A DNA stretch of 63,267 nt, filler included, from Collodictyon triciliatum (taxonomy: Eukaryota): assembly GCA_043381765.1 (NCBI GenBank). It is 5 parts of 5 records of this genome, joined end to end, with 100 filler letters (N's around TTAATTAATTAA, not from the genome) between each part and the next. Parts side by side here need not be neighbours in the genome. Positions count along the whole stretch, not along the records: positions 28,155 to 43,125 come from JBHJMP010000127.1; 4 more parts are not named here. One strand, written 5' to 3'. Every line of letters begins with the position of its first letter. Within the stretch, counting starts at the first letter, position 1. Position numbers and translations under genes: made by a program. Below the pieces are notes generated by a model. The model was not told the origin of the DNA. It did no database searches and was given only the letters and a program-made list of their open reading frames with translations. This document shows positions 23,001 to 43,125 of this stretch, piece after piece.

Positions 23001-26000
23001 TTTATTCCCTTGTACATGTCTCCTAGCGACTGGTAAAGTTCCTGGAAACCTTATTCTCTAAATTTTTAGAATCCAATAGCACTTGGTGTCCTATATTTAT
23101 TACTTTTATACTAAAATCAGGTACTACGTGTCATTCAACTACACCGACACCCGTGACCACTTTACCATCACCCAAGATGGGTTGCAAATACCTGAATCAA
23201 CACAGCTACCATCTCCATCCGACCGAATGGGGTCGTTTTACCACAATAGGGAAAATAGAACAGTGATAATACTGTTTTCAGGCATAGGGTCTCAGTCTCC
23301 CCTTGTCATTCAGGGTTTCCGCTGTCCACCACAGGGCTGCTTGGAGCCTCAAGTTATACTCATAAATGAAAAATTTCAAAGAAAATGGTCGAATGCTACA
23401 ATGTGGCCTGGAAAGGTATTGCCAAGAGATGGAGATGATGTGAAAATACCTTATGGCTGGCATGTAGTACTGGATATCGACACGAGCTTCCTTGCAAACT
23501 TGGTCATCGAAGGAGAACTCATATTCGACACTTCAAGGTAGCAGTTTTGAATATCTTAAGTCAAGTGAGATTGATATTTTCCCAATTATTTGCTAATCTT
23601 AATATATGCAGGTCATCATCCAGATTGGATGCAAACACAATACTGTTGAGAGGAGGAAACATTACTGCTGGGTCACCATCCAGCCCGTTGCCAAAAGCAA
23701 ATCAAATCGATATTGTCTTGCACGGAGATATTGACTCCTACCCTTTATTGATAACTGATGACATTGATGCAGGGCCCAAAGTGCTAGCCAATTTTGGATT
23801 GCTTGAGCTGCATGGATATCCATACACGCCATGGACAAGATTGTGCGATGTACGCTTTTCGCACGAAAAAAAATCAACAAAAATTATTTTGGCAATATTA
23901 ATACTCCCAAGACTCATGAATTCACATTTTTATTTTAGACATCACTTGCTGGACAGAATAAACTGGTATTATGTGAGCCCGTCAACTGGTCCATCGGACA
24001 AACCATAATAATAACATCAACGGATATGAGTTGGAGAAGAAGTGAAAAAGCTATAATTCAATCTATATCGCCTGATGGTAGATTATTGACACTCGGCTCT
24101 CCTCTTTCAAATGGACATTATGGTGCACCTAATAAAATGAAGCAGAATGGACGGGATGTTGAAATTAGAGCGGAAGTCGGATTATTGTAAGAAAAGGGTC
24201 TATTGTAATGCCTCTCATGATGATTTTGTTAATTTTCTCCTTGATTTATATCGTCATTTACATAAAACTCACTGGTTGAATTTTTTTTAGATCCAGAAAT
24301 ATAAGAATATCTGGTGTCATGTCCGACGACGATGTTGGTTGCCACGTTTTAACGAGTTCTTTCATGGATGGGAAAGTAATACAATTATATCATGCTGAAT
24401 TATTTTTTTGTGGATGCGAGTATACAGCTAACCCTTCTATTTCCAATAGGACAGGAAATCAGGTACTCTAGTTATGCACAATGTCGAAGTGGCTTATTGT
24501 GGCCAATTGGACACTTTGAGAAATGCAGTTAATGTCATTCAGGCGCCAGAATTCTCAATTAGGAACAGCTCGATACACGATTCCTTCAACACAGCAATCA
24601 ATGTCTTAAAATCTTCAGGGGCAATATTTGGGAATGTTATTTACAAAACAATTCAGTCTTCCGTTATTCTTCGAACAACTTCAAATGTTAACATCACCAA
24701 AAACTTAGCGGTCGGAACTACGATGCCAAAATGTACATTCCAATATAAACCTTAATAATTATTTGAATGTCTTTTATGCATCCAATTTAACGATTGTTTT
24801 TGATAGTGACCGATAAAGACCAAGTTATCATACTGGCCACATATGATATTTGCAGCAAAACAGCGTTTTCCTGTCCGTTTATCAACGTTCAGGACAATAT
24901 CGCCGCTGGGTCTGATGATATGGGATTCATGGTTCAGGTTTTCTTGCCTTTTTTTTTTAATGAGTAAATGAGAGATATTATTAAAACATAGAAATCTCAA
25001 AACATCAATTTATTCATTGGGTAATCAAGTATTTTATCTCAAGGGTCAACCATGCACTGACGTGTTGCCAGGCACACCCGTTTTTGAAAACAACATGGTC
25101 CATGCAACCATCATCGGCCTTTACATAGTAAAAAATGGGTTGTGCACAGTTGTCTCGAATTTTACTGCAGGAAAGTGTAGCTTTTACGGTATCATGATGT
25201 TCCAGGTTTTTTTAAAATACAAAAATTGTACTTTCTGAATATATTATTTTATTTTGTTTAAAGAAAAAATTCTTCTTTGATTGGAAAGAAAAAATGAACA
25301 AAAAATATGCTTTTGATGCCTTTTTTTTTTAAAAAAAATTTTTAGGGATCAAGTTTATACCTCAGGAATGTTGTTTTGGTTGATAACATATTCGGCATCA
25401 ACATCAACGTTGCAAAGGAGGGAGACGAAAATTTTGTTTGGATTGATTTATAATGAATATGATAAATTTTTGAGATTAATTAAGATACAAATCAAACCAA
25501 TAAAATTTCTCTTGGTCCAAATCTATCTTTACCTCTGGGCAACACACATTAACAATTGATTCGACTAGGTTAAAGTCCAAGATTCTTTGTTTATTGGAAG
25601 AAGCGATAACGCTGGATGTGGTTCACCAAACTCGATGGTTGGCTGCAATGATTGTGCAAGTGCCATCATCGCAGGAGGAAGAAGAGGTTTGTTGTTGCCA
25701 TTAAAATTAAATGAAAAGAAATAGTAACATAATAAATATTTAGGTTAATTATAAACCAAATAAAACAACTAATTAAGCGCCTCTTTCAATTTCCAAAATT
25801 TTCAAGCAATCATGACCACCACATTCCCTTTATCTGAAAAGGGACTTCCTCCCAGCAAATCGTCTTTACCATGGCATCGCATCAAAAGTGACGCATCTTT
25901 CGGAGGAGTAATTATCTATGATTTGTTTATAAATTAATTATCTTATGATATGAAAGCAAATTCAGCCGTATCCAATTACATGAAGTTATATAATACCAAA

Positions 26001-28054
26001 TCAAATATTTATTAATTTTCATAATTCTCAGATATTCGCAATGGAGAGGTGCCACTTTGCAAACTTCTCTGCGATAGATTCTTGCAGAAATGTCGATAGC
26101 CTGTTTTTCACAAATCCACTGTCTGCGGATGGCACACCTGAACACACACTTAATAATTGCACGACTTCAAATGTTCCGTTTGAGGTATGTATTAATTCGG
26201 TTCGGTATTAATGCAAGTCATCGTTTTTATTTGCAAACTTTCAGAGAAACCAGTTTATTATCCGTTTCAAATGAAGCATACCGGAATCTTTTATTCTGAT
26301 TCGGTTGTAGAAAGGTAGTATTACATATATTAAATATGCATAGTCCATGGCTAAATTTGTGGAACCAAACCCTGGATGGATGACAATAGACGATTGTGGG
26401 ACAGACATAAACTGTAGCGGGCTTAATAACGTTATAATAAGAGACGTAACAGGTGCAATATAATATAGCATACTCATATTTTAAAAATTTTCATCTATTT
26501 TTTTGTGTATTGCTTGCATATGTGAAATAAAAATCTTGTAATGGTGCCGATGCAAATAGGAACTGTAATGGGGAAACCTGGGGGCATAGCAATAAGTAAT
26601 AACGCAGGCATAGCCAGGAGGGACAAATGTGGCTTCGTTGGAATCTGGAATGGGTAAATCCACTCCTTCATATAGCTATCATACATAAGTTATCACTCTA
26701 ATTAAAATCGGAAAATCCTTACAAGTTGTCTCAATATACGAAATATGCTAGATATTACTGCTTAGATGTGAATATGAAAATGTTTACATTTGAAAGTATG
26801 GATTCAGACAGAAATACAAGACTTTTATCTCCAGTTGTGATTTCAGGTTCTCGACCCATAGGATTTCGTAACGTTCTTAACACTATGATGGACCACGGAT
26901 GGGACTTTGACTGTGAGTAAAAGCTGTAAACAGCACTGGAAAGCCAAGCATATCTTTTTTTATTATCATGAAGGTAATCAGACTTAACATTCTATTACTT
27001 TGCATCTCAGATACGTCCTTGAAAAGATTGTCACGATTTTACAGTTTAATCGAATCCAACCGATACTACAATTTGACTTTCAGAGGAACGAATCCTAGAT
27101 CGATGAGGATGCGATTGTACAACTCTAACAATGTAAAAACTTTATAATCACACAAATTCGCATTTGCACAGAAATTTTTGCCCTCTGAATTATGTGGTGA
27201 TATCCTTAATTTCTATAGAACGAGTTTACCATCATGCGAATAAAATTCAGTAATCCAGAAGTACTTCAGTTTTTGGTGAATGATGTCGCAATAGACCAAA
27301 AAACTGTAGATTCCATCCCAGAACATGACCAGATTATGGAAGAGATGAAAACAAATATCACCGTATGTCTATTTCTTGGAAATAATATCCGATATTTTAC
27401 AACTTTTATCCAAAATTTTAAATTTGGACTTTTTCCACCAGAACGGATATAGTCTCTACCATCCGTTAAGCCGCACTGTAGTTTTGCTGGTACGAGGAGA
27501 TTCGATTGTGTCGATGAAAACGTTGGATGCAGTCCATGTCTCCATGAAGATGACAATGACGGTTGAACAATTTTTCCAGACCGGTGGTGAAATGTCATTC
27601 GCTGAGAAGCTAGCTGGCGTGTTGGGCATTGATACCTCTCGCATTCGAGTCGTCTCCGTTGTTCCTGGGAGCCTTGTGGTTTTGTTCTATATCATACCTG
27701 ACCAAACAGTAGCGGATACAACTAGCAACCTGGCAGAAATAAAGCAGAATATCACTGAAGCTCTGAATACAGGTTCTTTGGAGGTACTGGGGGGAGTCGA
27801 AAGTCTTGAAGCTGCAGTTTCAATAACACCTCCAATAGTTCCTGTTAACGTAACCTCAAATTCAACAGCATCACAAAGCCAGTCTCTGAGCCCTTCTGAG
27901 CGCCCCACAGCCTCAAATACAATACATTCTCCAAAGTCAATCACAAAACCAACACAAATGAGTGGAACTTTAACTAAGTCTCAATCTCAATCTCAATCTC
28001 AATCTCAATCTCAATCTCAATCTCAATCTCAATCTCAATCTCAATCTCAATCTC
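11058..28054 (+). CDS. PKHD1L1: Fibrocystin-L (PKHD1L1)-like giant secreted or membrane protein, multi-exon, 3' end cut by the scaffold end
   Basis: Signal peptide MKNLLSPIVAVSLWLVLLTTPASCQ; many IPT/TIG repeats (GSTAGGTLVTVSGIGF, SSVKGGLELTIAGAGF, GSYRGGIPLSIYGNLF, GTAIGGTLVTIKG); PA14-like region (FYVSADD, YYMEILQKEGGG); first G8 domain (DRWSAHTTWG...VYIPSGQNVLLD...LILIEGSLVF); DMRAEVALLSRNV; RAGQAYRLGRYPLHFHM; FNRAVTIHG; second G8 domain (KWSNATMWPGKVLPRDGDDVKIPYGWHVVLD); ends in an (SQ)n tract at the gap. Symbol denotes family resemblance, not proven orthology. Confidence 0.9.
27978..28054 (+). repeat. (TCTCAA)n microsatellite read in frame as poly-(Ser-Gln)
   Basis: Continues the open frame of the last visible PKHD1L1-like exon. 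Confidence 0.85.
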
Positions 28055-28154
28055 NNNNNNNNNNNNNNNNNNNNNNNNNNNNNNNNNNNNNNNNNNNNTT
28101 AATTAATTAANNNNNNNNNNNNNNNNNNNNNNNNNNNNNNNNNNNNNNNNNNNN
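28055..28154. other. Artificial scaffold-joining linker
   Basis: N44-TTAATTAATTAA-N44, with stops in all six frames; identical to the other three linkers. Confidence 0.97.
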
Positions 28155-28388
28155 TTTCTTTTCTTTTTCTTTTTTCTTTTTCTTTTCTTTTTTCTTCTTT
28201 TTTCTTTTCTTTCTTCTTTTCTTTACTTCGCTTTGCTGTACTGTACTGTAATTTACTTTACTTTGAATTGCATTGCACAGCTTTTCTCTACTCTTTACCT
28301 CACTCATGGTTGTTGCATTCGTTTTTCTAATCACGACAACAATCAAATCCCCTGGAAAATTAAATAACAGGCTTGCTACCGCGCGACC

Positions 28389-31300
28389 ATGTACAGGTCT
28401 CCGCAACATCTGCATGGCAACCCTGCCGCTGTAGCCCAAAACTCGCCCCATATTGCAGACTTTCACATCATATCGTCATATATTGCCTTTAAGCCAAGGA
28501 CCCATGTTATTAACAATATCGGAAGAGGTGGGCAAGGTAGTGTATTTCTGGTGAGCCAACACGACTCTATATATGCTGTCAAAGCCATCCGCAAACAAGA
28601 CAGCACTGTGGAAAGAATCTATAGGGAATACCACATCCTTGCGAATGTAAAACATCCTAATATCGTGTGTCTTTACAGTGCCGTTGATACGTTACACTAT
28701 GTTTTCCTAGAATTAGAGTATGTTGATCGCGGTTCCTTTGGCAGTTATATCAGAGAAGTAGGTAGTATCACGCTGCATGATGCACAATTTTTCGTACGAC
28801 AGATTGCCGATGCATTGGCGTTTCTTCATGGCCACCAGCCCCCAATTTTCCATCGGGATATAAAACCGGATAACATTTTGCTGACAAAAACATTTGTTAC
28901 CAAACTTGCCGACTTCGGCGCTGCAAAGAATTTCGATGGGGCTGCTTCAAGCCAATTGTTTGGGACTACCTTGTTCGTGCCGCCCGATGTTCTGGAGGGC
29001 TTTGGAGACAGACCACCTAACAGCGATCTAAAGTGGGATGTCTACTCTCTTGGATTGACCGTTTTATACGCACTTACTGGGGTTCTCCCTTGGATTGAAA
29101 AACAATTTAATTGTGTAACAGAGAAAATAAATGGGCAACTGCCTAATTTGTATCACAATCTCGATAAGATACCTGCATCATTTATCTTTCGACTATGTCA
29201 CCCAGTACCCGAGTATCGCCCGACATCCTCAACCCTCTTAGAGTGGATAAGAGATGATAGAATAACCCTAGGCAATCTTCCTGAATGTCCACCTTATCCA
29301 AAGTCCGGTCTCGTCGATCCGTTGAAGCCTTCCCCTCCACCACCACCACCACCACCACTCGTGAAACTTCCCGCGGCATACTTTGTATCTGTTGAAGGAG
29401 GAAGTACGCGCGACAGGAATGAATTCATCAACAGACACGAACATTTAAGAAAGACTTTGAAGCAACAGCGTTACTTTGAGGATCAACTTCGTATTATTTT
29501 CCCTTGTGACAAGGATACATTCGCCCAGCACACAGGATCTCTTCCCAAATCATCCTTATCTGTTTTTACTGTCTCCTATAACGTTACATCGTTTGACAAA
29601 GTGTACCTCAGAGATTCCATGCGCGAAAGAGGTATGGTTATTTATGAACTTGGGATACCTTTTAATATTACCGAGACCAGAGAACATGGTATTACAGAGA
29701 TTAGTCTGTCGATTAGAAGCCCTGATACGTTTGCAAAAGATATGCAATTACTTCAAGAGCGTTATATACTATATCATGCATATCCAATCAGATTTGTGAT
29801 ATACTCCAAGAAAATCTCTCAGCTTGACATAGAAAGATTACTGTTCTTATCTGCTGAAAATGCTGCCGGCCCGTCGAACGGTTCTCGAAACAAAAGTAAA
29901 ACCCAGTCGCCATTACCTGGGTTCGTTTCATTCGGACCCTATATTTTTTTCATATATACTGAGTCGCTGAGTTATTGGCCTTTGCTTCAAAAGTCTATTA
30001 GCAAATATCTGAATCTTATCAAAGATAGCAATGTCATATATGTGTTCTCTTTGTCTCCACAAAAGCTCCAGGAGTTAATTAAAAACACAAAATCGGATTT
30101 CGAAGTCAGCGACGTAGTGATGGACTCGAATCATGGCTGCTACATTATGTTTAATGTAAGAGAAAGTATTAGTCCTGAGATTGACAGTAGTAATTTGTTG
30201 CAAGGTATTGGCTTTTTTTCATATCACGAGCCCGCAATATATACGGTATACAACCTTCGAATGAATGATATTAAAACGTGTTACACCAAAAAGGCCCACC
30301 TGGTTGTAAGCTCGCGTTTATTCGATTTATATTTGGTACCCACACGAAATTGCGTCTTTCTAGTGAGCGCAAAAAAGTTGGCGATTGATACGCTAACTGA
30401 GGAGCTACAAAGATATTTTGAAAACAGCGATGTAAAGATCGAAGAAACTGGTTCCCTTGAGTTTACCCATGTATGTGACTTCGGGCAAATTCATGAATCA
30501 GATGAGGCCAGAACCATAGCTGCGGTCAACAATTCATATATGTGCCAGTGGATTAAGAGTGATTTCATAGATGTCTACGATCGCATTAACACAGATTTTT
30601 CAAATGTAAGTAACAGACACAAGGTTCATCTTTTAAGAAAAATGGTTCTCCTAAACACCCAAGGAATGCTTTGGAGGGGTAAATACTACGATAAAGCCCA
30701 TGACGAAGAAAAAAGCATACCAACCAATATTTCTCCCATTGTATGCGAACTGTATGAAAAAATAGAAAAATCCAAAAGTGATTTGGAACAACTCAGCTTG
30801 GAGCCATGTGAATCGGCGTACATACACAAAGATTTGTGGCATGAGTCATCTGTCATGATATGTGTCTGGAAGAGTCACAAAGGCGAAAAAAATATCCTAG
30901 ACTCAACCGGTCCAGATACTGATATTTTTGCTCGAACCAACATTCTGTCTGCACAAGATACTATACGCAAACTATTCGAGAGAGATCGTAAGGAAAATAG
31001 CGTACCGTTTCCAAATTACTACGCTCCAAAAGTATCCCTTCTGCGTTCTGATGAAATGTCCGGATTCGAGCTGTTACCAACTTTTAAGGAATTCGACATG
31101 ATATTGTCTTTTATTGATACTAGTTTGTCGAATCAATCAGTGAAAGATATCGAAAAAAATATGGAGGAGAAGATTATTTCGCTCCTTCAAGTGATCTCGC
31201 AGTTGAATAAGAGACACGTTTTCCTTTATTTACCTTCCGTCTATTCGATGGGTGACGCATTTCCTAAATTTTTGATCCTCTTTATGAATGCTTTTCATGA

Positions 31301-31829
31301 ATATTGCACCCCTGCTAGAAAGGTTACGCTTTTGTACACTACAAAGGACAGATTTAAGGAGCTTGATAATAGGATTGATGAATTAGCTATTGACAACCAT
31401 TTCGTCAAGAAATGTGGTGATCGGGATTTGAGACCGGAGATATCTTACTGCCATACTTCTATCTGCAGAAACAATCAACCACAACACTTGTCCGATTATG
31501 TGCACCCAAATGAATGCAAAATCTCATCATGTGATGGCAAAAAAATCAACTTGCATGGAGCTTTTATCGATCACAGTCGATGTACCAAGGATTCCCAAGC
31601 ACCTGATAGACAGTCAAGATCACTTCAGCATATGGTTCATTCTCTTGATTCTTTGTCCACCATCAAAACTAGTGGGACATCGCTCAATTCTTGTGGTTCT
31701 TCCGCAGAACACCGACCCAACAGTTCGAATCTGGGTTCGAATGCAACATCTGACTTCAATCGGATGTTCAATCCCAGTGCTAGCTTCGGAATGACACATA
31801 GCAAAACAGGTAAAAATGTTATCAAGTAA
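28389..31829 (+). CDS. Intronless 1146-aa Ser/Thr protein kinase fused to a degenerate microbial-type PARG (TIGR02452/DUF2263)-like domain and two PBZ-like zinc fingers
   Basis: Kinase motifs GRGGQGSVF, AVK, alphaC Glu (REYHIL), HRDIKPDN, DFG, GTTLFVPPD, DVYSLG; poly-Pro linker; region about 30610-31410 resembles TIGR02452 by eye; two C-x4-C-x6/7-H-x5-H fingers at about 31449-31574. The kinase call is firm, the C-terminal domain calls are moderate. Confidence 0.85.
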   Translation: MYRSPQHLHGNPAAVAQNSPHIADFHIISSYIAFKPRTHVINNIGRGGQGSVFLVSQHDSIYAVKAIRKQDSTVERIYREYHILANVKHPNIVCLYSAVDTLHYVFLELEYVDRGSFGSYIREVGSITLHDAQFFVRQIADALAFLHGHQPPIFHRDIKPDNILLTKTFVTKLADFGAAKNFDGAASSQLFGTTLFVPPDVLEGFGDRPPNSDLKWDVYSLGLTVLYALTGVLPWIEKQFNCVTEKINGQLPNLYHNLDKIPASFIFRLCHPVPEYRPTSSTLLEWIRDDRITLGNLPECPPYPKSGLVDPLKPSPPPPPPPPLVKLPAAYFVSVEGGSTRDRNEFINRHEHLRKTLKQQRYFEDQLRIIFPCDKDTFAQHTGSLPKSSLSVFTVSYNVTSFDKVYLRDSMRERGMVIYELGIPFNITETREHGITEISLSIRSPDTFAKDMQLLQERYILYHAYPIRFVIYSKKISQLDIERLLFLSAENAAGPSNGSRNKSKTQSPLPGFVSFGPYIFFIYTESLSYWPLLQKSISKYLNLIKDSNVIYVFSLSPQKLQELIKNTKSDFEVSDVVMDSNHGCYIMFNVRESISPEIDSSNLLQGIGFFSYHEPAIYTVYNLRMNDIKTCYTKKAHLVVSSRLFDLYLVPTRNCVFLVSAKKLAIDTLTEELQRYFENSDVKIEETGSLEFTHVCDFGQIHESDEARTIAAVNNSYMCQWIKSDFIDVYDRINTDFSNVSNRHKVHLLRKMVLLNTQGMLWRGKYYDKAHDEEKSIPTNISPIVCELYEKIEKSKSDLEQLSLEPCESAYIHKDLWHESSVMICVWKSHKGEKNILDSTGPDTDIFARTNILSAQDTIRKLFERDRKENSVPFPNYYAPKVSLLRSDEMSGFELLPTFKEFDMILSFIDTSLSNQSVKDIEKNMEEKIISLLQVISQLNKRHVFLYLPSVYSMGDAFPKFLILFMNAFHEYCTPARKVTLLYTTKDRFKELDNRIDELAIDNHFVKKCGDRDLRPEISYCHTSICRNNQPQHLSDYVHPNECKISSCDGKKINLHGAFIDHSRCTKDSQAPDRQSRSLQHMVHSLDSLSTIKTSGTSLNSCGSSAEHRPNSSNLGSNATSDFNRMFNPSASFGMTHSKTGKNVIK

Positions 31830-32147
31830 CTGATTAAAAGTGACAGAAAAAAGTAGAGAATCAATTTTGCGTTGATAATATGAGTGAAGTGACATGTGAT
31901 ACCTATTAGTATTTTTTAATTGTGTNNNNNNNNNNNNNNNNNNNNNNNNNNNNNNNNNNNNNNNNNNNNNNNNNNNNNNNNNNNNNNNNNNNNNNNNNNN
32001 NNNNNNNNTTGTTTGTTTTTTGTTTGTTCGGTTACGTGTTTCTTTTTCCGTTAATTCGATATTTGTTCGTATATAATTTAGTGATTTACATCAGGTCATC
32101 AAATAGCATATTCGTTACATAATATATTAAAGAAAAACTAAGATCAG

Positions 32148-32629
32148 AATGCTTTGAAGTTGAAAAATTATTAATTACCACATTTATGAAGTACACTCAC
32201 TTCTCCGTGATTCCTCCCTTGGGCTCCGTTGGTGGCGAATCACTTAACTACAAGGCAGAGTGCGAGATTCTGCAAATTCTTAGCATAATATCTATTGTGA
32301 GCGATATCTTCCTCATTTTAGTGTATTTTTATTTCCATATTACTTGTCTCACTTATCGATTTATGAGAAGTATGTATATTATCAGACACAAGTCGAGTGA
32401 CGGCTTTTTTAATGTTAAATATGTCTTTCCTTTCATGAAATTATTAGGCATCTTTCTTCAGCGGCAAATACAACAATCACTCGCTTCTTGAAAGTATGGC
32501 TTTGAGAAAAAAAATTTCATAATCTGATTCCTTATATTCCTAGAAAAAATCGCAATTTTCGATTCAGATTAATTTTTTGAAATATGTTTCAACCACTTAC
32601 TTTTTCTCTACAACACTAATTTTAATATT

Positions 32630-32695
<66 letters not shown>

Positions 32696-33117
32696 TAGTC
32701 GCTTTTACGGTGATAAGACTGGCCTCTCAGCTTTGTGTGCAAGTTAGCATATGTCAAGGTCTCTTTTACGCTGCGGTTGTTTTTGAGAATCTGGGACTTG
32801 AGTATTGGGGATCTATCTACCAACAAGAAGCGATGGCGTAAGGGAGAAAACTTTAATATGAGATATTAAACTTAAGATATAGATATATAGTCGATTAAAA
32901 AATCGGGTAACATAATAATACTCTACACGAAGAAACAACAAACTCAATTCTTTCCCTTTTAGGAGATTGGAAATGTTAGACGACAAGAACGCCATTTTTT
33001 TCAGACCCAGGGCTAAGTTTATCATAAGTATGATGAAAGGAAATTTTGAAGAGGCCTACAAAGCGTTTGGTTTTGACCCTTTGAGACCAAACGATTATGG
33101 AGAAAAGTAATTAATCC

Positions 33118-33183
<66 letters not shown>

Positions 33184-34800
33184 GTCTATTCATGCACTTA
33201 ATCGAACATTGTAAGACTCCATGATGAATATTTTATAGAATACATAACAAAATGCACCTTTACAATTTTCAGGATTTTAGTTTCAACCGAGACAGCACTC
33301 TCTTCCATCACATCGACTTTGTACTACTCATCAAACTTTTCGTTGGCGCACAAAGTAGCACAGGAACTCGAGGGTATGTCGTTGTGCGAGTTTTCATTTA
33401 TCTTGTCCATATATTCGTAGTGGCTTACGCTATCTCTCTCCTCTTCTTTGTCAGAACCCTCATCACGAGTAAATATTAAGGATATCTATATAGACGATGA
33501 AAAAATACACACAATAATCCCCTTTATTTGCCAGGTTTGGCTAGAAAGAAGGAAATTGGATTATTGGAAATAGCTGCCATAGGAATAGAAGTTTTATCCT
33601 CGTACAAACTTGGAAAGTTTCAGGATTGCCGCGAAATACTGTCGCGAATAGGTGTGTATCCAATTCGGCTTCCTCGATAGTAGTGTGTTCCATTTCATAT
33701 TCACCCTTGATTATTCATCCGAATTTATGATTTTTTTTTCCATTCTGCTATTTCTTTTCAAGATTATCGCAATGCTACATCTGACCCTGCACTACAAATA
33801 TCCTTTCTTTCCACTGCCGCTGCGCTATTCTTTCGCGAGGGAAACCTGAGCAAATGCCTCGAGCTGCTGCAAAGTGCATTTTCGTTTATGAAGCAGCAAC
33901 AGGTAACTGCACAATCTCTTTAGTAATGATGTGTTTGCACAATGCGTATAAAATGAGCCTTTGAAAGAAATGCGGAGGATAATTGTAAGGGTGTACATAA
34001 CCGTATCATTCCGTGTAACCGAGTAATACAACATAATTTAATAAATCGTAGTTAGGAATCAACACGTCGTACATCCGAGCCTTCGGAACGTATTTGGGCA
34101 CCATCTTGGAAGCATGGCAATTTTGTGTATCGCATAAGCTCGATACTATGGCAAAGAGCCGCAGATTCAACCCTGTCCAGTGCCAAGCGGGTCGCCTCTC
34201 GTACTTGTACGAAGGATTAAACGGTGCGTGAATACTCCTCAAAACAAAACAAAACAAAACAAAACAAAACAAAACAAAACAAAACAAAACAAAACAAAAC
34301 AAAACAAAGAAGCAACACCAACCAAGCTCATGACTTTGCGCTTTCCTCTGTCAACACTACAATCGCTTGATGCGCATAATAACATCTAACGTCTGCTAGT
34401 TGTTGTGGACGAAGAGACCATCGGTCAACACACTCAGGAGCTGGAAAAGCTTTACCAAGATGGAATCGAGCGCTCGGGCAAGCTGAACCAGAGTTTTCGT
34501 CCGAATCGACCGCAATACCACATTCTCTGTGGGAGGGCGATGCAGCTGCAAAGCAGCCCCGGCTTCTTCACTCGACGCGCGGTGTTCAAGACCTTGGAAA
34601 GAGGACTGACGGAAGCGCAGGCTTTGAGAATGCGGTTTGAGGAGGCGGAGGCTTTCAAGTACATGGGCTTAATCGCTTCGTCCAGCCCGCTACAGGCTCG
34701 GACATACCTAGTCTCTGCACGCAACATATACGAGGAATTATCGTGTGAATGCGAGTCTCGTGTGATGGCCAAAGCGCTGGAGTGCATACAGTCCGAGTGA
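32148..34800 (+). CDS. C-terminal nine exons of a TPR-like alpha-solenoid protein resembling the tails of soluble adenylate cyclase/STAND-TPR proteins; 5' end unresolved
   Basis: Exons at about 32148-32296, 32449-32493, 32699-32837, 32963-33107, 33273-33373, 33535-33651, 33763-33902, 34051-34123 and 34400-34800 splice in frame with GT-AG ends. The product is helical and ends ...GRAMQL...LERGLTEAQALRMRFEEAEAFKYMGL...ARTYLVSARNIYEELS...*. Family assignment is by eye. Confidence 0.7.
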
Positions 34801-35107
34801 CTGAGATTGTAGAGGAAACCTGTTGATATCAAGTTGAAATTTCATAAATCCCTATAGACAAAATAATTATAAGTTATCGGCTGTGGAGAATATGTCTTTT
34901 TTTCCCTTCTTTTTGCTCCTCTTTTCCTCCTTGATTTCATTTGACACATATGCGGAATTGGCACCGATGCATCACTGAACCAGATTTGATTTATAACAAC
35001 GGAAGTCCGTAAAAAGTTAGGGTGTGAATAGTCATTGGTAACTGATATGTATTAGAAGCCTCTTTCTTTTTATTCATTTGTCTTAGGTAAATTTGAATTT
35101 TTTGATT

Positions 35108-36708
35108 CTAACAAGTAGTCCAGAAAGAATCTTCTGGTTGGTTGGGGACCTGTGGCAGTTCTTCGTTGGAGGTGTTGCTTTCTAGTCTGGATAATCCATT
35201 GGCAATTATGTTTTTGTCTATTCTCTCATTTTTCCTTTCTTTTTCGTTGTTGGATGCTCTGAATACAATATCCATAGTTTCTCTCATTACCATATTCTGG
35301 ATACATGCGTGTACTTTATCACTTCTGCCCAGAACGCTCCTGATGTCCGCGGTTTTCTTAGTGACATTACCGCCTCAAGAGATGATGTATTGTAGCACCA
35401 CTGTTTTCGTGTGATATTTCTTGGCTAGGTCTCTCCTTAGTGTCTCATGTTTACCCACTTTCTCTTGTTCTCCTTTGGCTTGGTATCCTGGCGTCACAGC
35501 CGCTACATCAATTATGTGTATGGTTTTGCGAATTTTATCCTGTATTACTAATTCAGGCTTATAGACGTTTTCTAGACTTCGGAGCCAAAATCGCAGTCAG
35601 AGGGTATTGTAGCGTATTGGTTTGCTATGATTTTTTCTATAATGCGTCTTTTGGGGCATTGGTCTTTCGAGAAGTTGTATTTGAGGCTTAGGTGTTTCTG
35701 GATGCGTCAGACTGCTTCGTTATGAAGTCTGGTGAAGTGTGGTAGGTTAAGAGTGCACCCAATTGCTACGTGGGGAAGGTTCTTAGTGTCTTGCAAGTGT
35801 TGCATTTTGAGATGTTATTAGAGAATACGTTGTCATCCTGTAGGGCGGAACACACAGCTTCTTCTACCGGGGAGCTAAATCCTTTCGTCGGTCATTTGTT
35901 GGAGTCTTTCTTTTGGATTTTCTCTTACTATAGACTTTTTTACAATAGAAAGTGGACTGTTTTCTTATTGTTGCCTTCTTTTAGGTGCTGAACTTGAGCA
36001 TTTTGTAGCTCTGTATTACTAAAATTGACGAGGTCAATCCTCGGGTATTGGGCTGCTAGTATTTCCTCACTGTGAGTGGTCGGGGATATCTCTTTTTTCT
36101 CTATCATGAGGATAGCTGTTTTCTGTGGTTCGAGATGTCACTTAGACACCGTTATAAGTTCATTAGTAGTCTTTCTGCTTTGTACTCAATGCTACCAAAC
36201 TCTCTTCCAATTTCATATATGGGTAGTTAGAGTCTTTCTATGCTTGCAGCTTTTAAGTGGACTTTCTCGCTTCTAAGGAAATTTCTAACTTTTAAGTCCA
36301 TCTCTCTGAATTAGGACATGATATAGTCGACGAGGCCGATATGGTAGTTTAATATTGATAGGCAAACTAATTGATTGCCTAGAAAAGGTGTTTGGCATTT
36401 AGGTTTATTGCACATGGTTTTCTGGTTCTTAGTCCATATCTTCTTGTGTCCCTGTCTTTGTCGTTTTTTCCTACTTGGTTTCCTTGGTCTTCGTAGACTC
36501 CTTGGTTTTTGTATGTCCCGTCTTGTCCTATTTCTCGGGCGTGGGGCGAGTCGGTCTGATATTTGATTGCTGATTTCTCTTCATTTATTATAAGCCCTAC
36601 TTTGTTTAGCTCGCTGACTGTTATGTCTAGCCACGCCTCTAGTTGCTCTTTGGGGGTTGCATATAGCTCCCTGTCTTTCACAAATAACAGGTGAAGTTTA
36701 GTTTTCAT
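35108..36708 (-). mobile_element. Decayed, 5'-truncated non-LTR retrotransposon with restriction-like endonuclease (R4/NeSL-type)
   Basis: Minus-strand translation across stops and frameshifts: RT remnant HLLFVKDRELYA...LNKVGLIINEEKS, thumb LNAKHLF*AIN...VHLKAASIERL*LPIYEIGREF, CCHC region ALQDDNVF...CNTCK/HVAIGC...RLHNEAV, endonuclease KPELVIQDKIRKTIHIIDV...EQEKVGKHETL...YIIS*GGNVT...CIQNMVMRET. Confidence 0.88.
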
Positions 36709-37912
36709 TCACCAAGCTGTAAACAAGCCGTGGTGATCTACCATTACCACCGCCCATTTCTTCTTGATAGACGAGGATCACTCGGAGCCCACCAGATTAC
36801 TCTACTTTTTTGTTCATATTTATTCAATAATTTCCAATTACTAATTATCATTTAATTATTTGATATTTAGATGATTAGGTAATTAAGAATGGAACAAAAG
36901 TATTTATTGTATACAATGAAGCGTTTAAAACAGTATAAAAATGTAATTTTTATATTCTTAGAAAAGATTGAGTCAATGCCATTGAAGTCTTTTCATGCTA
37001 ATGAATAGTTAAAAGAATTGAATATCGAATGGCATATTTAATTATTTTGTTCGATTTCACATACAAAGAATATAAGATAATGGTCGCTTCGTCTCGTTCG
37101 ATTGTCATGAGCGACAACCGAGTTTATTCCCCAAATTCGAGCAGATAAATACGAAAAAGTGTCCGTTAAATAAGGGGCAAAATGAAGCAAAAAAATATCG
37201 AGGAAGAGAAAAAACGCTCTTGCTAAATTCCAGAGGCAAAATGGGTCGCCTGAAGAAAAGGGAGGCCAGACTAGCAAAGACGCGCGTTTACGATAGACAA
37301 AGAAAAAAAAAAGGGAGATACTCCAGCAAAGAGAAGAATGGCTTCAAGTTCAAGCCGTCCGCTCACAGGCAGCAAGAGAATTATGAGTATTGCCCAGTAT
37401 TAATTGTTTTCTTCATTTTTCCTTTTCTATAATTTCTTTCCTTATTTTTTTCCCATACTGATGAGAAGCCCGGGTACCGCAGCTAATATTAAATAGTGCA
37501 TCTCATCAGAACAAACAACCCAGCACGCGGGAAGAACGAGTTTGCGCAACGCAGGTGGAACCGCCGGCATATTGAAAGTTTATCATTTCCGCATATAGAA
37601 AATTCTGGATGAAGTCCAAAAATGTCTGATTTTGATTTGTTTTGTGTTTATTTGGCTGAATCCGGCTATGGTTTCATCTGTCATTCTGGAGTTGGAATGG
37701 GTTGTGTCGGGTTTGTTGATCGGCTGCCACCTGCAATGAGCGATAGCGCAAGGCATTAGTTGGAGAGGCCCGCCTTGTGATGACAACTCTGTCGCTGTCA
37801 TTCTACCTTTAAGTGCATTTTCTCCTCTCTTTACGGGGTTCGCCTTCCTTTGGCTGTTCTTGTTCTCCCTTACCCTTCTTGCCTTTGAAGCTCGTTTTTT
37901 TTCTTCTTGCAT

Positions 37913-38300
37913 TTTTAGTCTTTTTTATTGTCTTTTTTTGTCTTTTTTATTGTCTTTTTTATTGTCTTTTTTATTGTCTTTTTTATTGTCTTTTTTATTG
38001 TCTTTTTTATTGTCTTTTTTATTGTCTTTTTTATTGTCTTTTTTATTGTCTTTTTTATTGNNNNNNNNNNNNNNNNNNNNNNNNNNNNNNNNNNNNNNNN
38101 NNNNNNNNNNNNNNNNNNNNNNNNNNNNNNNNNNNNNNNNNNNNNNNNNNNNNNNNNNNNTGTTTTTTGTTTGTTTTTTGTTTGTTTTTTGTTTGTTTTT
38201 TGTTTGTTTTTTGTTTGTTTTTTGTTTGTTTTTTGTTTGTTTTTTGTTTGTTTTTGTTTTGTTTTGTTTGTTTGTTTTTTGTTTGTTTGTATTTTTTTTT
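37913..38300. repeat. (TTGTCTTTTTTA)n 12-mer and TTTG-rich repeats around a gap
   Basis: Tandem units upstream of the first visible PBZ exon. Confidence 0.9.
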
Positions 38301-38388
38301 ATCCGGTGCCAGGAGCATATGTCACATTTTTTTTAAAAAAAAAACTATATATGTATAAACCCTCTTATTCATCACATAAAAATATCAG

Positions 38389-41367
38389 ATTGTCCCAACG
38401 GAAACGGGTGCAGACTTATCAACAACAAGAAACATTATGACGATTATTATCATAACACGCTTCCACTTTGCCCTGATGAGCCATTCTGCCACAACAGAGA
38501 TAATTGCAAGAATAAGGGAGTGTACTCCCATATCTGCCAGTTTGGGCCAACTTGCACTAAAGGGAAATCCTCTCGCGATTCTAGCCACGAGAAAAATTTC
38601 CTTCATTTGAACACAAGAGTTTGTCCTTTTAACTCTCTTTGCAACTTCCAATATGACCATGACCATTCACTAATGTACTTTCACTTGTTCCACGACAATG
38701 AAAGGATGATATGTCCCTCGGATATGACATGCACAGAAATTAATGATGACGCCCACAAGAAAAAATTCTATCATCAACTAGATACATTATTTTTGTGCTT
38801 GGTTGATCGGTCAAGCAAACCAGAAATTAAATTGTCTTTGAACGAAGAGGCTCTTCTGCCTTTGAAACAATTCTACAATGTCTCATCTCTGCCTTCCGAT
38901 CTGTTGGAATTTTGTTCTTACCTCACTCCAACAATCACCTGCACAGCTACTGACTTTTCGTCATTCGTTAAGCTGGGAGCGATATATCCCAAAGGAAGAT
39001 TCAAGGCTGTCGGTTCAAAATTGGAGTTAGATCAGTATCTTCATAACCATCCGTTCATCCATCAAGTTGGATGGGCCTCCCCGAATATGACGGTGAAGAA
39101 GAGGGAAGTCATTCTCAAGAGTATTTACAAGATTCAGTATTACAGGATTGGAAAATATTTGACGGAAAAATCTCGTCGTGATTACTCAGACCACCAGGCT
39201 GAGGCTGAGATTAAGGCTGCATCACTTGCCGCTCTGGAAGCAGGACTTATACAAGATGAATTGGATTTGTTAGATCAAGTCATCGATTCTTGTTGGGCTC
39301 ACTATTGCGAGCTTTCAATGCCAACAGATAATTCCAACCCGTACCCTGATATGATATCTGATAGAATATTTGGGCAGCTTGGATTTTCCTTGGTAAAGTT
39401 ATTTGCTAAGTCTTTGTGATATAAAATCCTCTTAAAAACAAGAAAAGTGAGAAACTGTCACTCAATTTTAAAGCTCTAATTTTATATTCCATTCGCATGG
39501 CTCAAAGTGGTATTTCATAGTTTTTTTTTTTTTTTACACTCGTCCTTCAATTAAACTCAGTTCTTTTATTGCATAGCCCCAGGGATGCAACACAGAAGTT
39601 ATTATTGTTCTCAAGCAAGACATTCTGTATCACCCGAGTACAATTATCAGTCCTATCACTCCCAATTGCTTGCAATCTGGTTATCCTTCGAAATCGTGGC
39701 TAGCCACACAAAGAGAAGATTCTGTGCAATGCCTAAGGAAGTATAGCTTCACGTACGAAGACCCAATAGCCTTGGATTATATCACTCGCGATTCAATTAA
39801 TCAATTGAGGTCAGCTGGTCAGAGTGACTTCAGCCCCAGCAATTTCGTGCGCCATTGTCTTGATGGCAGATCTAATCTCGCACTTTCGTGCTATCTACCA
39901 TCAATCATCCCTCTTAGTGCAATCGAAAAAATCATTATTCCGCAGGTAAGAGTTTTGCTTCCATTCATAGTTGTTAAAAAATGTAACATTTCATCAGGAT
40001 GCCTTTCATGAAATGATCATTCAATTCTCCTTCTTTTTAATCTTTTTTTAATCTTTTTTTAATCTTTTTTTAATCTTTTTTTAATCTTTTTTTAATCTTT
40101 TTTTAATCTTTTTTTAATCTTTTTTAATCTTTTTTTAATCTTTTTTAATCTTTTTTAATCTTTTTTTTAAAAGTTTTTAATTTTTTTTAATTATTACTAA
40201 TACTTCGAATCTTGTCCAATCAATCCTTCACAGTCTTTAAGTAGGCAGCTGGACCCCCAGTGCAAATCCATGCTGGAGTTGATGAAATGGGATTACCATT
40301 CAGGAATTATGTGCCCAACCGCGAATCCAAACGAAAGCCATATCATTCTCGGCGAAAAGCCCATCCCCTTTTGCTACATGAATCATAAATCATGGCTTGA
40401 ATGTCTGAACGTGCAACTGACGCCGTTTTGTTTCTTCAAGGCTCCACATATAATCTCATTTCGCTCTCAAATGGAAATCGCATTCGCTGTATCCAAAGAC
40501 TTTTTCCATATTAGCCTGTGCTCAGACTTTGAGGACAATATTCCAACCGGGCACATCATAACGTTCCAAGTAAATATTCCGGGTAACTACTCGGGAGTTT
40601 TTGAGAGACGCCCAGAGAAACCTAACGCCCCTGCCTTCCCCGGCGAATGCATCACACACAATACGTTTGCTTTTAATAACGCCCTCACGCTAAAAGTTAT
40701 CCACTTCAAGATTATCATGACCCATGAAAAAGTTACTATGCGCATGGACGGTGTCTCGCGCATCCTCAACGAATTCGAAGTCGGTCACAGCTACCAGGAC
40801 AGAGGGGCAAACCCCAGTAACCTACGGTATCTAGTCTTCCAGTCCCAAGGAGAGCGCCCTCAGCTGGTCTGTCTGCGTCTCTCTGCCGACTCGGAACTCC
40901 CTCCTCTCAAGATTCACTCGGAAACGCCTTCGTTTCCCACGCCGAGCCCTGGTCTGGGCCAAGTCCTTGGGATAAGAAAGTGCCTGGCCGGCCCCAAGTG
41001 CCTGCAAGTCCAAAACCAGTGCCACACCCAATCCTACGAGCACACATTCCTGCCCGTGTGTCCAGACAAGGGCAAGTGTCCTCGCGCCTACGATGAAAAA
41101 GGCTGCCACTCAGCCGAGATGTCGCATCCTTGCCGCTACGGGAAGTTTTGCAAGGTTCCCTCCAATGACGCGCACTGGAACCGCTACTACCACTTGTTCC
41201 GCCCAACGTGTCCGAACGGGGCGGACTGCGCAGATGTGAACCAGGCGTCGCATAGAAATGCATTCTCGCATGTTGGACACCGTGACATACTAATCCCTTG
41301 CAGAAACGGCGCGACCTGTCCGAAACAAAGAGACTCTGAGCATGCCGCGGTGTACTCTCATGATTAG
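38389..41367 (+). CDS. Ten PBZ-like C2H2 fingers (5+5) flanking a degenerate DarT/ART-like domain and a beta-rich domain; first exon(s) unresolved
   Basis: Exons 38389-39392, 39577-39945 and 40234-41367 splice in frame (GT-AG). Fingers follow C-x5-C-x7-10-H-x5-H (e.g. CRYGKFCKVPSNDAHWNRYYH); finger 2 lacks the first His. Central motifs PTITCTATDFSSFVKLGAIYPK, RIFGQLG, VIIVLKQDILYHP and LSCYLPSIIPLSAIEKIIIP. Confidence 0.8.
40035..40170. repeat. (TAATCTTTTTT)n 11-mer intronic repeat
   Basis: Tandem units within intron 39946-40233. Confidence 0.9.
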
Positions 41368-41935
41368 CCGCACACGAGGAACAATGGCGGTGGGGAGGAG
41401 AAATGAAGATGGAGAAATGAAGATGGAGATATGGAGATGGAGAAATGGAGATGGAGAAATGGAGATGGAGGAGCTCATGGCTACGAAATACCGATTGATA
41501 AAGAAAAAAATGAAAAAAAGTCGGAACCATGTAAAAAAAAAAATGACGTGATAACCGCTGTGTCTTTGACTTGTGTGGGACGGTTTATTTTTGATTGGAT
41601 TTGGTTCTTTTGACTCTTATTTTTATCGGTTTTTTTATTTATTTTTTTTTTTATTCTTCCTTTCAATTTTGTGCAGGATGGTGAAGATGTTGGCTTTGGT
41701 TCGCTAGCCATCGTTTGCATGGACGCTACTTGGTGGCCGGGTGGCGGAGAAGTAGTCGGTAATCAGGAATTGCATCCTGCGCTTTGGCCTGTAGCCTGGG
41801 TCTTGTGCTTGCATAAGAGATTTTCCGGTTTTTTTATTAATGTTTTCTTCATTGGATTATTCTTTCCGGTGATTCATTCAGTATCATTATTCTGTTGAGT
41901 AAAGCAAGTGCAGAAAGAAGGGCAGCCACCAAGGA

Positions 41936-42367
41936 ATGAGCGGACGCGTGTGTTTCTTGTGCGGCGAGACAGGCCATTTCCCCATGTACTGTGAGTCGTC
42001 TGACTTTGCGGTAGGGCGCGTGCGTCTTCGAAAAGGCGATCGGATCAGATCAAGTGAGGAAGAACTTGCTTTATTTCTATTCTTGTTTCTGGCTATTAAC
42101 GTCGATTTTGTTTTTGTTTTTTTTTTTTAGCATTTTTGCTTATGTACTTATTTTTTTATTTTTTGCTTCTTTTTACTTTTTTTTCTTCTTTCACTGCGTT
42201 TTTACTTTTCTTTCTTACGTATATAATGACGGTAGTAGATCATATCTTATCTCCATTTCCCTGCAGAAAAAGATCCCGCATGTGTAGACAGCAAAGGTGG
42301 AGAGGCTGGTTTAGGAGAGGCTGATAAAGGTCGGAATAAGAAGGCAAAGGCAAGTCTCCCATCCCTA

Positions 42368-42424
<57 letters not shown>

Positions 42425-42920
42425 CTCTCTCTCTCTCTCTCTCTCATGTATAGATAATCATTTTCATTCGGCGCATCTTTCTTTCTTTTCTCAAGTCCAG
42501 GTCGGACCGTTTCGTCTATTAAATATATATAGGTATATATCGCATCGTCAGTTTTGTTTAACTCCAATCTCTTTTACAACATATTCACCAAAATAGAGGC
42601 CAGTCATCAGAGCAAAGGCCATACTAAAGCAAACTCAGTTGGCATCTCAAGCCAGAAATCTAATAAATTGGGCCCAACTTAGGATTAAACTACGCAGCAG
42701 AGACCAAAGCAGGTTTATACTGCTATATGTTGTCAATTTCTCTGTCGCTAGATTTGATATTAATTGTATTTTCTACAATGTGTTTATCTTATTTTACAGT
42801 AAATTTATTATAATTATGTCCAGTTGCTCACCAGAATCGCCGGTTGGAAAGAAATCACCCCAGCAAGAGATACATTCCTTGGAAAAGGGAAGAGCATCTA
42901 CTGAATGCGATATTGAAGAT
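41936..42920 (+). CDS. Partial gene starting with a CCHC zinc knuckle; function unknown
   Basis: MSGRVCFLCGETGHFPMYC matches C-x2-C-x4-H-x4-C; further exon-like segments near 42268-42349 and 42823-42920; scaffold ends at 43125. Confidence 0.55.
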
Positions 42921-43125
42921 GTAATTTGTATCTTAACGGAGAAAAATAAGAACTAGGATTATCTGCCTATTATACCTAAAGACTTAAGGTGCCTGCGTCT
43001 ATTCACATGTGATATATTTTACTTACTTCTTTTTCTTTTTCTTTTCTTTTTCTTTTCTTTTTCTTTTCTTTTTCTTTTCTTTTTCTTTTCTTTTTCTTTT
43101 CTTTTTCTTTTCTTTTTCTTTTCTT

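Follow-up and report, generated by a model that had tools for sequence, protein, structure and literature searches.

Does the freshwater eukaryote Collodictyon triciliatum carry a locus that reads ADP-ribosylation and answers it with phosphorylation? The question arises from two genes of the assembly GCA_043381765.1, which we analyzed within a window of 63,267 nucleotides made of joined parts of the genome, with 100 N of filler between each part and the next, so that parts lying side by side are not necessarily genome neighbours. All positions count along this joined stretch; 28,155-43,125 comes from JBHJMP010000127.1, and both genes lie within it. The original prediction, made for 28389-41367, held that both genes encode zinc fingers of the PBZ kind, the reader of poly(ADP-ribose) (PAR), that gene 1 joins a kinase to a dead PARG-type eraser, and that gene 2 carries a dead DarT-type writer, an ADP-ribosyltransferase (ART). 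Both genes indeed lie on the + strand, from an ATG at 28389 to a TAG that ends at 41367. Our analysis indicates that their fingers probably belong to the PBZ kind and that gene 1 encodes a kinase which, by its catalytic motifs, is an intact Ser/Thr kinase. The observation itself holds once corrected, and the interpretation holds in part: of the two dead folds, the eraser has weak hints in its favour and the writer has none.

Two finger genes and the kinase

The two genes have the following features.

28389-31829, + strand: gene 1 coding sequence, a single exon of 1146 codons followed by TAA (31827-31829); ATG at 28389, with an in-frame stop just upstream
28503-29240, + strand: protein kinase domain of gene 1, residues 39-284 (Pfam PF00069, E 1e-46)
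29370-30599, + strand: orphan region of gene 1, residues 328-737, behind a proline-rich linker; AlphaFold2 predicted local distance difference test score (pLDDT) below 50 throughout
30600-31439, + strand: candidate degenerate macro-like domain of gene 1, residues 738-1017, with structural hints in residues 877-1000
31449-31574, + strand: two CCHH fingers of gene 1, C-x4-C-x6/7-H-x5-H, from the motif scan
38337-39392, + strand: first known exon of gene 2, 352 codons, five fingers and then the start of the core (open reading frame; donor GT at 39393)
38391-38774, + strand: N-terminal array of gene 2, five PBZ-like fingers, the second degenerate; homologous to the C-terminal array
39577-39945, + strand: exon 2 of gene 2, 123 codons of orphan core without a family (splice sites; contig joints of run X1 on both sides)
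40234-41367, + strand: exon 3 of gene 2, 377 codons and the TAG, encoding the rest of the core and five fingers
40981-41361, + strand: C-terminal array of gene 2, five PBZ-like fingers (motif scan and finger profile)

The kinase of gene 1 was predicted to look intact, and it does. Its match to PF00069 scores 159.9 bits against a gathering cut-off of 31.7, and every catalytic motif is there: GRGGQG at 45-50, K65, HRD at 155-157, N162 and DFG at 175-177. These correspond to the Gly loop, the VAIK lysine, the HRD motif, the catalytic Asn and the DFG motif by which protein kinases are generally recognized. Among solved structures its nearest relatives form a generic set (CTR1, BRSK2, Aurora A and AMPK, E around 1e-23), and no solved kinase family is near. 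Between the kinase and the fingers lies an orphan stretch of about 690 residues.

Gene 2 consists of five fingers, an orphan core of about 560 residues and five further fingers, in 852 open codons. Its two introns (39393-39576 and 39946-40233) are of the GT-AG type with all junctions in phase 0, which corrects the original prediction. An 11-base unit fills most of the second intron (40020-40190).

We then considered how closely the fingers resemble PBZ. The pattern C-x4/5-C-x5-10-H-x5-H has 12 six-frame matches, 11 in the frames of the two genes and one at 26550-26606 on the - strand. Local shuffling, done for 100 windows, yielded 0.39 matches on average and 3 at most, so the fingers are not a product of chance. 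With a degenerate finger at 38469-38531, in which the first His is missing, the layout becomes two in gene 1 and five plus five in gene 2. Compared with each other, the arrays of gene 2 prove homologous from end to end (26% identity over 136 residues, blastp E 9e-12), which makes one of them a copy of the other.

A profile of the 12 fingers, compared with 177,635 solved sequences, placed the PBZ structures of APLF, 2kqb and 2kuo, first and second (E 1.1e-4 and 1.2e-4) among 15 sequences at E<=10; the alignment takes in both fingers of APLF and has a gap of one residue. CHFR was absent from the solved sequences matched at that threshold. All four zinc ligands are present in 11 of the 12 fingers. 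The first and second Cys (C1, C2) are five residues apart in ten of 12, the distance from C2 to the first His (H1) is seven in eight of 11 (6, 9 or 10 in the others), and H1 and the second His are five apart in all 11. The published consensus reads [K/R]-x-x-C-x-[F/Y]-G-x-x-C-x-[K/R]-[K/R]-x4-H-x3-[F/Y]-x-H in the portion of PMC4756826 available to us. Against it, Gly stands at C1+3 in half of the fingers (6/12) and an aromatic residue stands two before the last His in 10/12.

Several observations weigh against a PBZ assignment. The best that the Pfam PBZ model (PF10283) reaches is 9.0 bits on a single finger (E 1.9), where the cut-off is 22.7, and it finds no match when the finger arrays are searched as wholes. 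Furthermore, the aromatic residue at C1+2 is present in only three of the 12 fingers, and the dibasic pair at C2+2/+3 in none, with one basic residue in five, the degenerate finger included.

These departures are what one would expect if the fingers were a lineage-specific CCHH family that shares only its zinc scaffold with PBZ, binds RNA, DNA or protein, and sits in fast-evolving orphan genes unrelated to ADP-ribose. Such a family would also account for the next solved matches to the profile, which are CCCH fingers, RNA-binding ones, at E 0.028-0.04, for the Nab2-type CCCH character of the weak Pfam matches on the fingers, for the lack of homologues among 1.84 billion representative sequences, and for differences between transcript contigs and the assembly that mostly alter the residue. 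On the other side, the E-value of APLF PBZ is about 250-fold better than that of the next family, the PBZ consensus is matched in spacing, in the Gly and in the [F/Y]-x-H ending, and the macro-like hints found in the same protein (see below) would have to be coincidence. We consider this alternative unlikely, though it is the strongest competitor of a PBZ assignment, and the prediction that the fingers are of the PBZ type is upheld by the APLF match and the consensus spacing, with the Pfam threshold left unreached. Binding of PAR is a separate matter. Since that threshold was missed and most of the consensus aromatic and dibasic residues are missing, we leave binding in doubt and regard it as slightly the less probable outcome. 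Of the PBZ of SNM1A, the available part of PMC4756826 says that critical residues are missing and that it perhaps does not bind PAR.

Orphan regions and the claimed ADP-ribose folds

Does gene 1 also carry an eraser-like fold? Outside the kinase, the protein has no detectable relatives. Residues 328-1146 match no Pfam, NCBIfam or PADLOC family and no PDB sequence, even at E<=10. A word-indexed homologue search with residues 330-1146 returned 6858 candidates, none at E<=0.01. An exhaustive phmmer search of 1,835,955,588 representatives with the orphan and finger part gave 0 matches at E<=0.001, and scans of metagenomes and viral contigs found no homologues.

The family named in the original prediction fares no better in sequence comparison. 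Neither TIGR02452 nor PF10021 matches gene 1 at E<=10, which tells against a recognizable PARG domain. We built an alignment of TIGR02452 from 62 of the 120 homologues found; with an effective number of sequences (Neff) of 2.1 it is narrow, and the profile tests based on it are weak, but the broader models of Pfam and NCBIfam found nothing either. In hhalign, gene 1 reached a probability of 0.16% against it, and the global mode gave an overlap of ends only. With hmmsearch --max, the TIGR02452 model found nothing in the real protein, and 190 of 500 shuffled versions gave some hit. Smith-Waterman scores against individual members were equalled by 24-137 of 300 shuffles.

The catalytic loop of bacterial-type PARG, GGG-x-QEE (PMC6445106, in the text available), is invariant in our alignment. 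Gene 1 contains neither GGG nor QEE anywhere, as predicted; this absence is expected of a dead copy and equally of an unrelated protein.

Three weak hints nevertheless converge on a macro-like fold, at residues 877-1000. First, the neighbours of residues 330-1146 in a language-model Atlas are Macro clusters (0.79 and 0.78), at a recognition below the tool's mark, and the ten best hits that bear a family all belong to the macro clan. Second, AlphaFold2 models made without an alignment, whose low confidence (pLDDT 35.6 for residues 340-1070 and 41.9 for residues 730-1017) allows their fold matches to be used as leads only, resemble macro domains. In Foldseek, 22 of the 41 matches listed for the low-confidence model are macro domains, from five proteins, and a separate 731-residue model, also of low confidence, retrieved the same macro families. 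The matched domains come from nsP3 of chikungunya virus (CHIKV), Getah, VEEV or Mayaro, from Af1521 and from macroH2A1.1, and they cover 85-91 columns at a root-mean-square deviation of 3.4-4.2 (probability 0.8-0.95, E 0.05-0.2). The ten top matches of a low-confidence model in VIA are all the CHIKV macro domain, with model positions 148-271 on chain positions 29-160. PARG-type chains are absent from the Foldseek and VIA matches listed, which does not exclude PARG.

The third hint was found by eye and is a lead without a test. Five hydrophobic blocks of gene 1 (VMICVWKS at 822, DTDIFARTNIL, YYAPKVSLLR at 877, RHVFLYLPS at 942 and KVTLLY at 978) are collinear with the consensus strands of TIGR02452 at similar spacing, and the best Smith-Waterman path to one TIGR02452 member passes through the same blocks. 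Taken together, these models and neighbours tip us slightly towards a macro-like fold in gene 1. The eraser-like fold thus finds some support from the Atlas, Foldseek and VIA as a macro-like one, and none from any sequence test at significance. Descent from a PARG-type domain we regard as unlikely.

Does gene 2 carry a writer? DarT (PF14487) gives no Pfam or PADLOC match in gene 2 at E<=10, and a hidden Markov model (HMM) built from 30 DarT sequences finds no match, in what is a weak test given the narrow alignment (Neff 1.95). Against DarT, hhalign returned a probability of 0.38%, on a 21-residue stretch around HQAEAE that falls on the QAE region of DarT, and the Smith-Waterman score was equalled by 135-189 of 300 shuffles. 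In the Atlas, the part of the core encoded by exon 1 lies near clusters of a fungal hypothetical protein, DUF8356 and F-box proteins, at low recognition, with no ART cluster among them. We therefore have no HMM, profile, shuffle or Atlas support for the predicted DarT-type fold, and consider an ART fold in gene 2 highly improbable. The gene 2 core as a whole matches no Pfam or other family, and its exon 1 portion, compared with longer proteins, gave 1446 candidates and no homologue. PADLOC HEC-05 matched the exon 1 core at E 0.0039 (13.8 bits), which we take as chance. The last 240 or so residues of the core (40234-40968, + strand) look beta-rich from the sequence, by impression, and match no family.

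Transcription, gene order and assembly

Four sequencing runs were compared with the stretch. Two of them, X1 and X8, are labelled only 'RNA?', which is a guess. We read their contigs as cDNA because they show spliced joints in gene 2 and in a gene lying between the two finger genes, a poly(A) tail, and loose ends that resemble a template-switch adaptor. On this reading both finger genes are transcribed, and gene 2 and the middle gene are spliced. X1 contigs join both introns of gene 2 (39392|39577 and 39945|40234), and X1 and X8 contigs run unspliced over gene 1 at 28584-29044 and 29610-30690. The freshwater metagenome run X2 contributes short contigs on both genes, with 0-3 differences. The four runs are without cover, and so uninformative, at 31270-32604 (the fingers of gene 1 and the first N-gap) and at 38390-38834 (the N-terminal fingers of gene 2); in the first of these there is no more than trace depth, 0.19 for X2 in the 31270-31714 bin and 1.8 for X3 in the 32160-32604 bin.

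Differences between X1 and the stretch change eight codons and leave four silent; small as these numbers are, the pattern suggests fast evolution. Two of the differences fall in finger Cys codons of gene 2 (41133 and 41229), and both are synonymous.

Could one or both genes be decaying pseudogenes, or mis-assembled, so that the architecture has no present function? The first exon frame of gene 2 has no Met ahead of the fingers; further upstream a single ATG lies in frame, at 38319, and a TAA (38334-38336) separates it from the first finger. One X1 contig carries a one-base deletion at 30371 that would shift the frame of gene 1, N-gaps flank the genes, and both are orphans. The TAA, however, sits where a T-run meets an A-run, just before the finger frame; an assembly error is a plausible source, a genuine nonsense codon or an untranslated leader are others, and an acceptor AG at 38387-38388 leaves room for an upstream exon. 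The deletion lies in an A-run, and the X8 contig agrees with the stretch. Moreover, the reading frame stays open over 1146 codons in gene 1 and over 852 in gene 2, the gene 2 exons are in phase with their joints observed, and the finger Cys codons change only synonymously. We thus consider decay or mis-assembly improbable. A ciliate-type genetic code, considered for the in-frame TAA of gene 2, was ruled out: gene 1 ends with TAA, the middle gene with TGA and gene 2 with TAG, so the standard code applies.

Are the two genes neighbours? The region 28389-41367 holds three + strand genes, gene 1, the spliced middle gene and gene 2. The immediate adjacency that had been claimed does not hold, as the middle gene and a retroelement fragment lie in between.

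32717-34866 (approximate), + strand: intervening spliced gene with at least seven exons and a helical-repeat-like product, outside the claimed system (X1 contig joints)
36379-36708, - strand: reverse-transcriptase fragment, a retroelement remnant in the stretch that leads up to gene 2 (sub-threshold Pfam match to RVT_1, E 0.0095)

The joints of the middle gene are GT-AG; it stops with TGA at 34798-34800, and poly(A) follows 34866 in an X8 contig. Its frame covers 397 codons and is still open where the contig ends on its 5' side; a helical-repeat-like product would fit it, and its last exon matches no Pfam family.

The N-gaps at 31926-32008 and 38061-38160 are where the original prediction placed them. 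Since no contig listed from the runs spans either gap, the linkage of gene 1 to gene 2 depends on the scaffold alone. The window is rich in microsatellites and short tandem repeats, with (TTTCT)n and (TTTGT)n beside gaps, for example at 37900-38300, and holds 17 N-runs of 44, 83 or 100 bases in its 63 kb, filler included. Elsewhere in the window, 11247-28050 (+ strand) is occupied by a large multi-exon gene with several IPT/TIG domains, a CEMIP beta-helix and two G8 matches, which we describe as fibrocystin-like. A (CAG/AGC)n-type microsatellite at its end runs into the N's at 28055-28154, the joint between two parts, which in the stretch comes shortly before gene 1.

Nor is there a sign that the two finger genes act together: their only common element is the finger type, which differs in spacing (C-x4-C in gene 1, C-x5-C in gene 2), and blastp found no similarity between their non-finger regions. 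A coupled ADP-ribose-reading locus, in which a kinase fused to a dead TIGR02452-type PARG lies beside a PBZ-flanked dead DarT-type ART, both derived by fission of a PARG-PBZ-ART ancestor and serving as a sensor or as a decoy of pathogen ADP-ribosylation enzymes, can draw on the PBZ-like fingers and the intact kinase, on the macro-type hints and by-eye blocks in gene 1, and on a bacterial-type PARG with PBZ repeats in a rotifer (PMC4245714, in the text available), but the null TIGR02452, PF10021 and DarT tests, the non-ART neighbours of the gene 2 core, the gene and retroelement fragment in between and the dissimilar non-finger regions make it very improbable indeed, and nothing we found supports either the fission or the decoy.

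Relation to known ADP-ribose readers

How, then, do these genes compare with known PBZ proteins? To our knowledge, PBZ is confined to eukaryotes, and it is a rare kind of reader. The accessible portions of PMC4245714 and PMC5087659 count three PBZ proteins in vertebrates and seven in Dictyostelium, and the latter presents PBZ as a mark of damage-response proteins, including the Dictyostelium Chk2.

Like those of APLF and CHFR, the fingers are tandem CCHH elements spaced C-x5-C and H-x5-H; they also share the Gly that follows the first Cys and the aromatic residue of the [F/Y]-x-H ending. Unlike them, they stay below the Pfam cut-off, and the aromatic and dibasic residues of the consensus are missing from most; the fingers of gene 1 are C-x4-C, and gene 2 has ten of them, whereas human proteins have one or two.

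The PARG of Adineta vaga carries PBZ in several copies (Perina et al. 2014, PMC4245714, in the part available) and, as in the reading of gene 1 given here, joins a PARG-family macro domain to repeated PBZ in a freshwater eukaryote. In contrast, the gene 1 domain has no detectable PARG similarity, no GGG and no QEE, in a comparison that uses the published description only, and the candidate domain is fused to a kinase and to about 400 further orphan residues. Dictyostelium Chk2 and CHK1, the second with a variant, PBZ-like PAR-binding motif (PMC4756826, as far as the source was available), offer a parallel for a Ser/Thr kinase with a PBZ-type reader and suggest recruitment of the kinase by PAR. 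The gene 1 kinase, however, is not assignable to Chk1 or Chk2, its best solved relatives being generic, and in gene 1 the fingers come last, at the C-terminal side of the long orphan stretch.

The low-confidence models of residues 877-1000 superpose best on macro domains, a group that takes in the MacroD, Af1521 and alphavirus nsP3 types, and the Atlas points to Macro clusters. Unlike the macro, TIGR02452 and PF10021 families, gene 1 has no HMM or profile match and no catalytic signature, and its scores are at noise level. Any likeness of gene 2 to DarT (PF14487) is local, limited to the 21-residue HQAEAE/QAE stretch, with no family or statistical similarity otherwise.

The literature searched, supplementary files being outside the search, holds no account that we found of a kinase with a macro-like domain and PBZ, or of a protein with ten PBZ. 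The modules and their pairwise unions (PBZ-PARG and PBZ-kinase) are already known; the particular combinations and the ten-finger protein were not found. The claim that the arrangement is undescribed calls for a milder form, as PARG-PBZ in Adineta vaga and kinase-PBZ in Dictyostelium Chk2 are in print.

Our best explanation, to which we give about an even chance, is that a freshwater eukaryote has here two genes, separate from each other, both transcribed and both restricted to its lineage, each of which would have recruited PBZ-type CCHH fingers. Gene 1 would encode an active Ser/Thr kinase followed by a proline-rich linker, a long orphan region, of which the last 200-270 or so residues are probably a catalytically dead macro-like domain, and two fingers. 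The fingers, perhaps with the macro-like domain, would dock the kinase on a polymer of ADP-ribose, or on a polyanion like it, and the kinase would then phosphorylate proteins nearby, in a manner that would parallel the PBZ recruitment of DNA-damage-response proteins. Gene 2 would encode a multivalent scaffold, with ten fingers in two homologous arrays flanking an orphan core. What the data show directly are the gene structures, the contigs that lie on both genes, the intact motifs of the kinase and the resemblance of the fingers to PBZ; ligand binding, the macro-like fold and recruitment are the parts that we infer.

A bolder version would make gene 1 a converter of ADP-ribose signals into phosphorylation, its dead PARG-derived macro domain and two PBZ gating or localizing the kinase. 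Gene 2 would then be a high-avidity PAR scaffold of the same pathway, and the whole a lineage-specific module derived from PARG-PBZ fusions such as those seen in rotifers. We hold this version to be improbable.

For now, these genes are of value as a lead and do not amount to a discovery. Because the non-finger regions have no detectable relatives, they are candidates for new or very divergent folds. If the explanation of two PBZ-type reader genes is true, the fingers would offer a natural test case for the number of consensus residues that a PBZ needs to bind PAR, and a ten-PBZ protein together with a PBZ kinase that possibly carries a dead macro domain would widen the known wiring of ADP-ribose signalling to other pathways.

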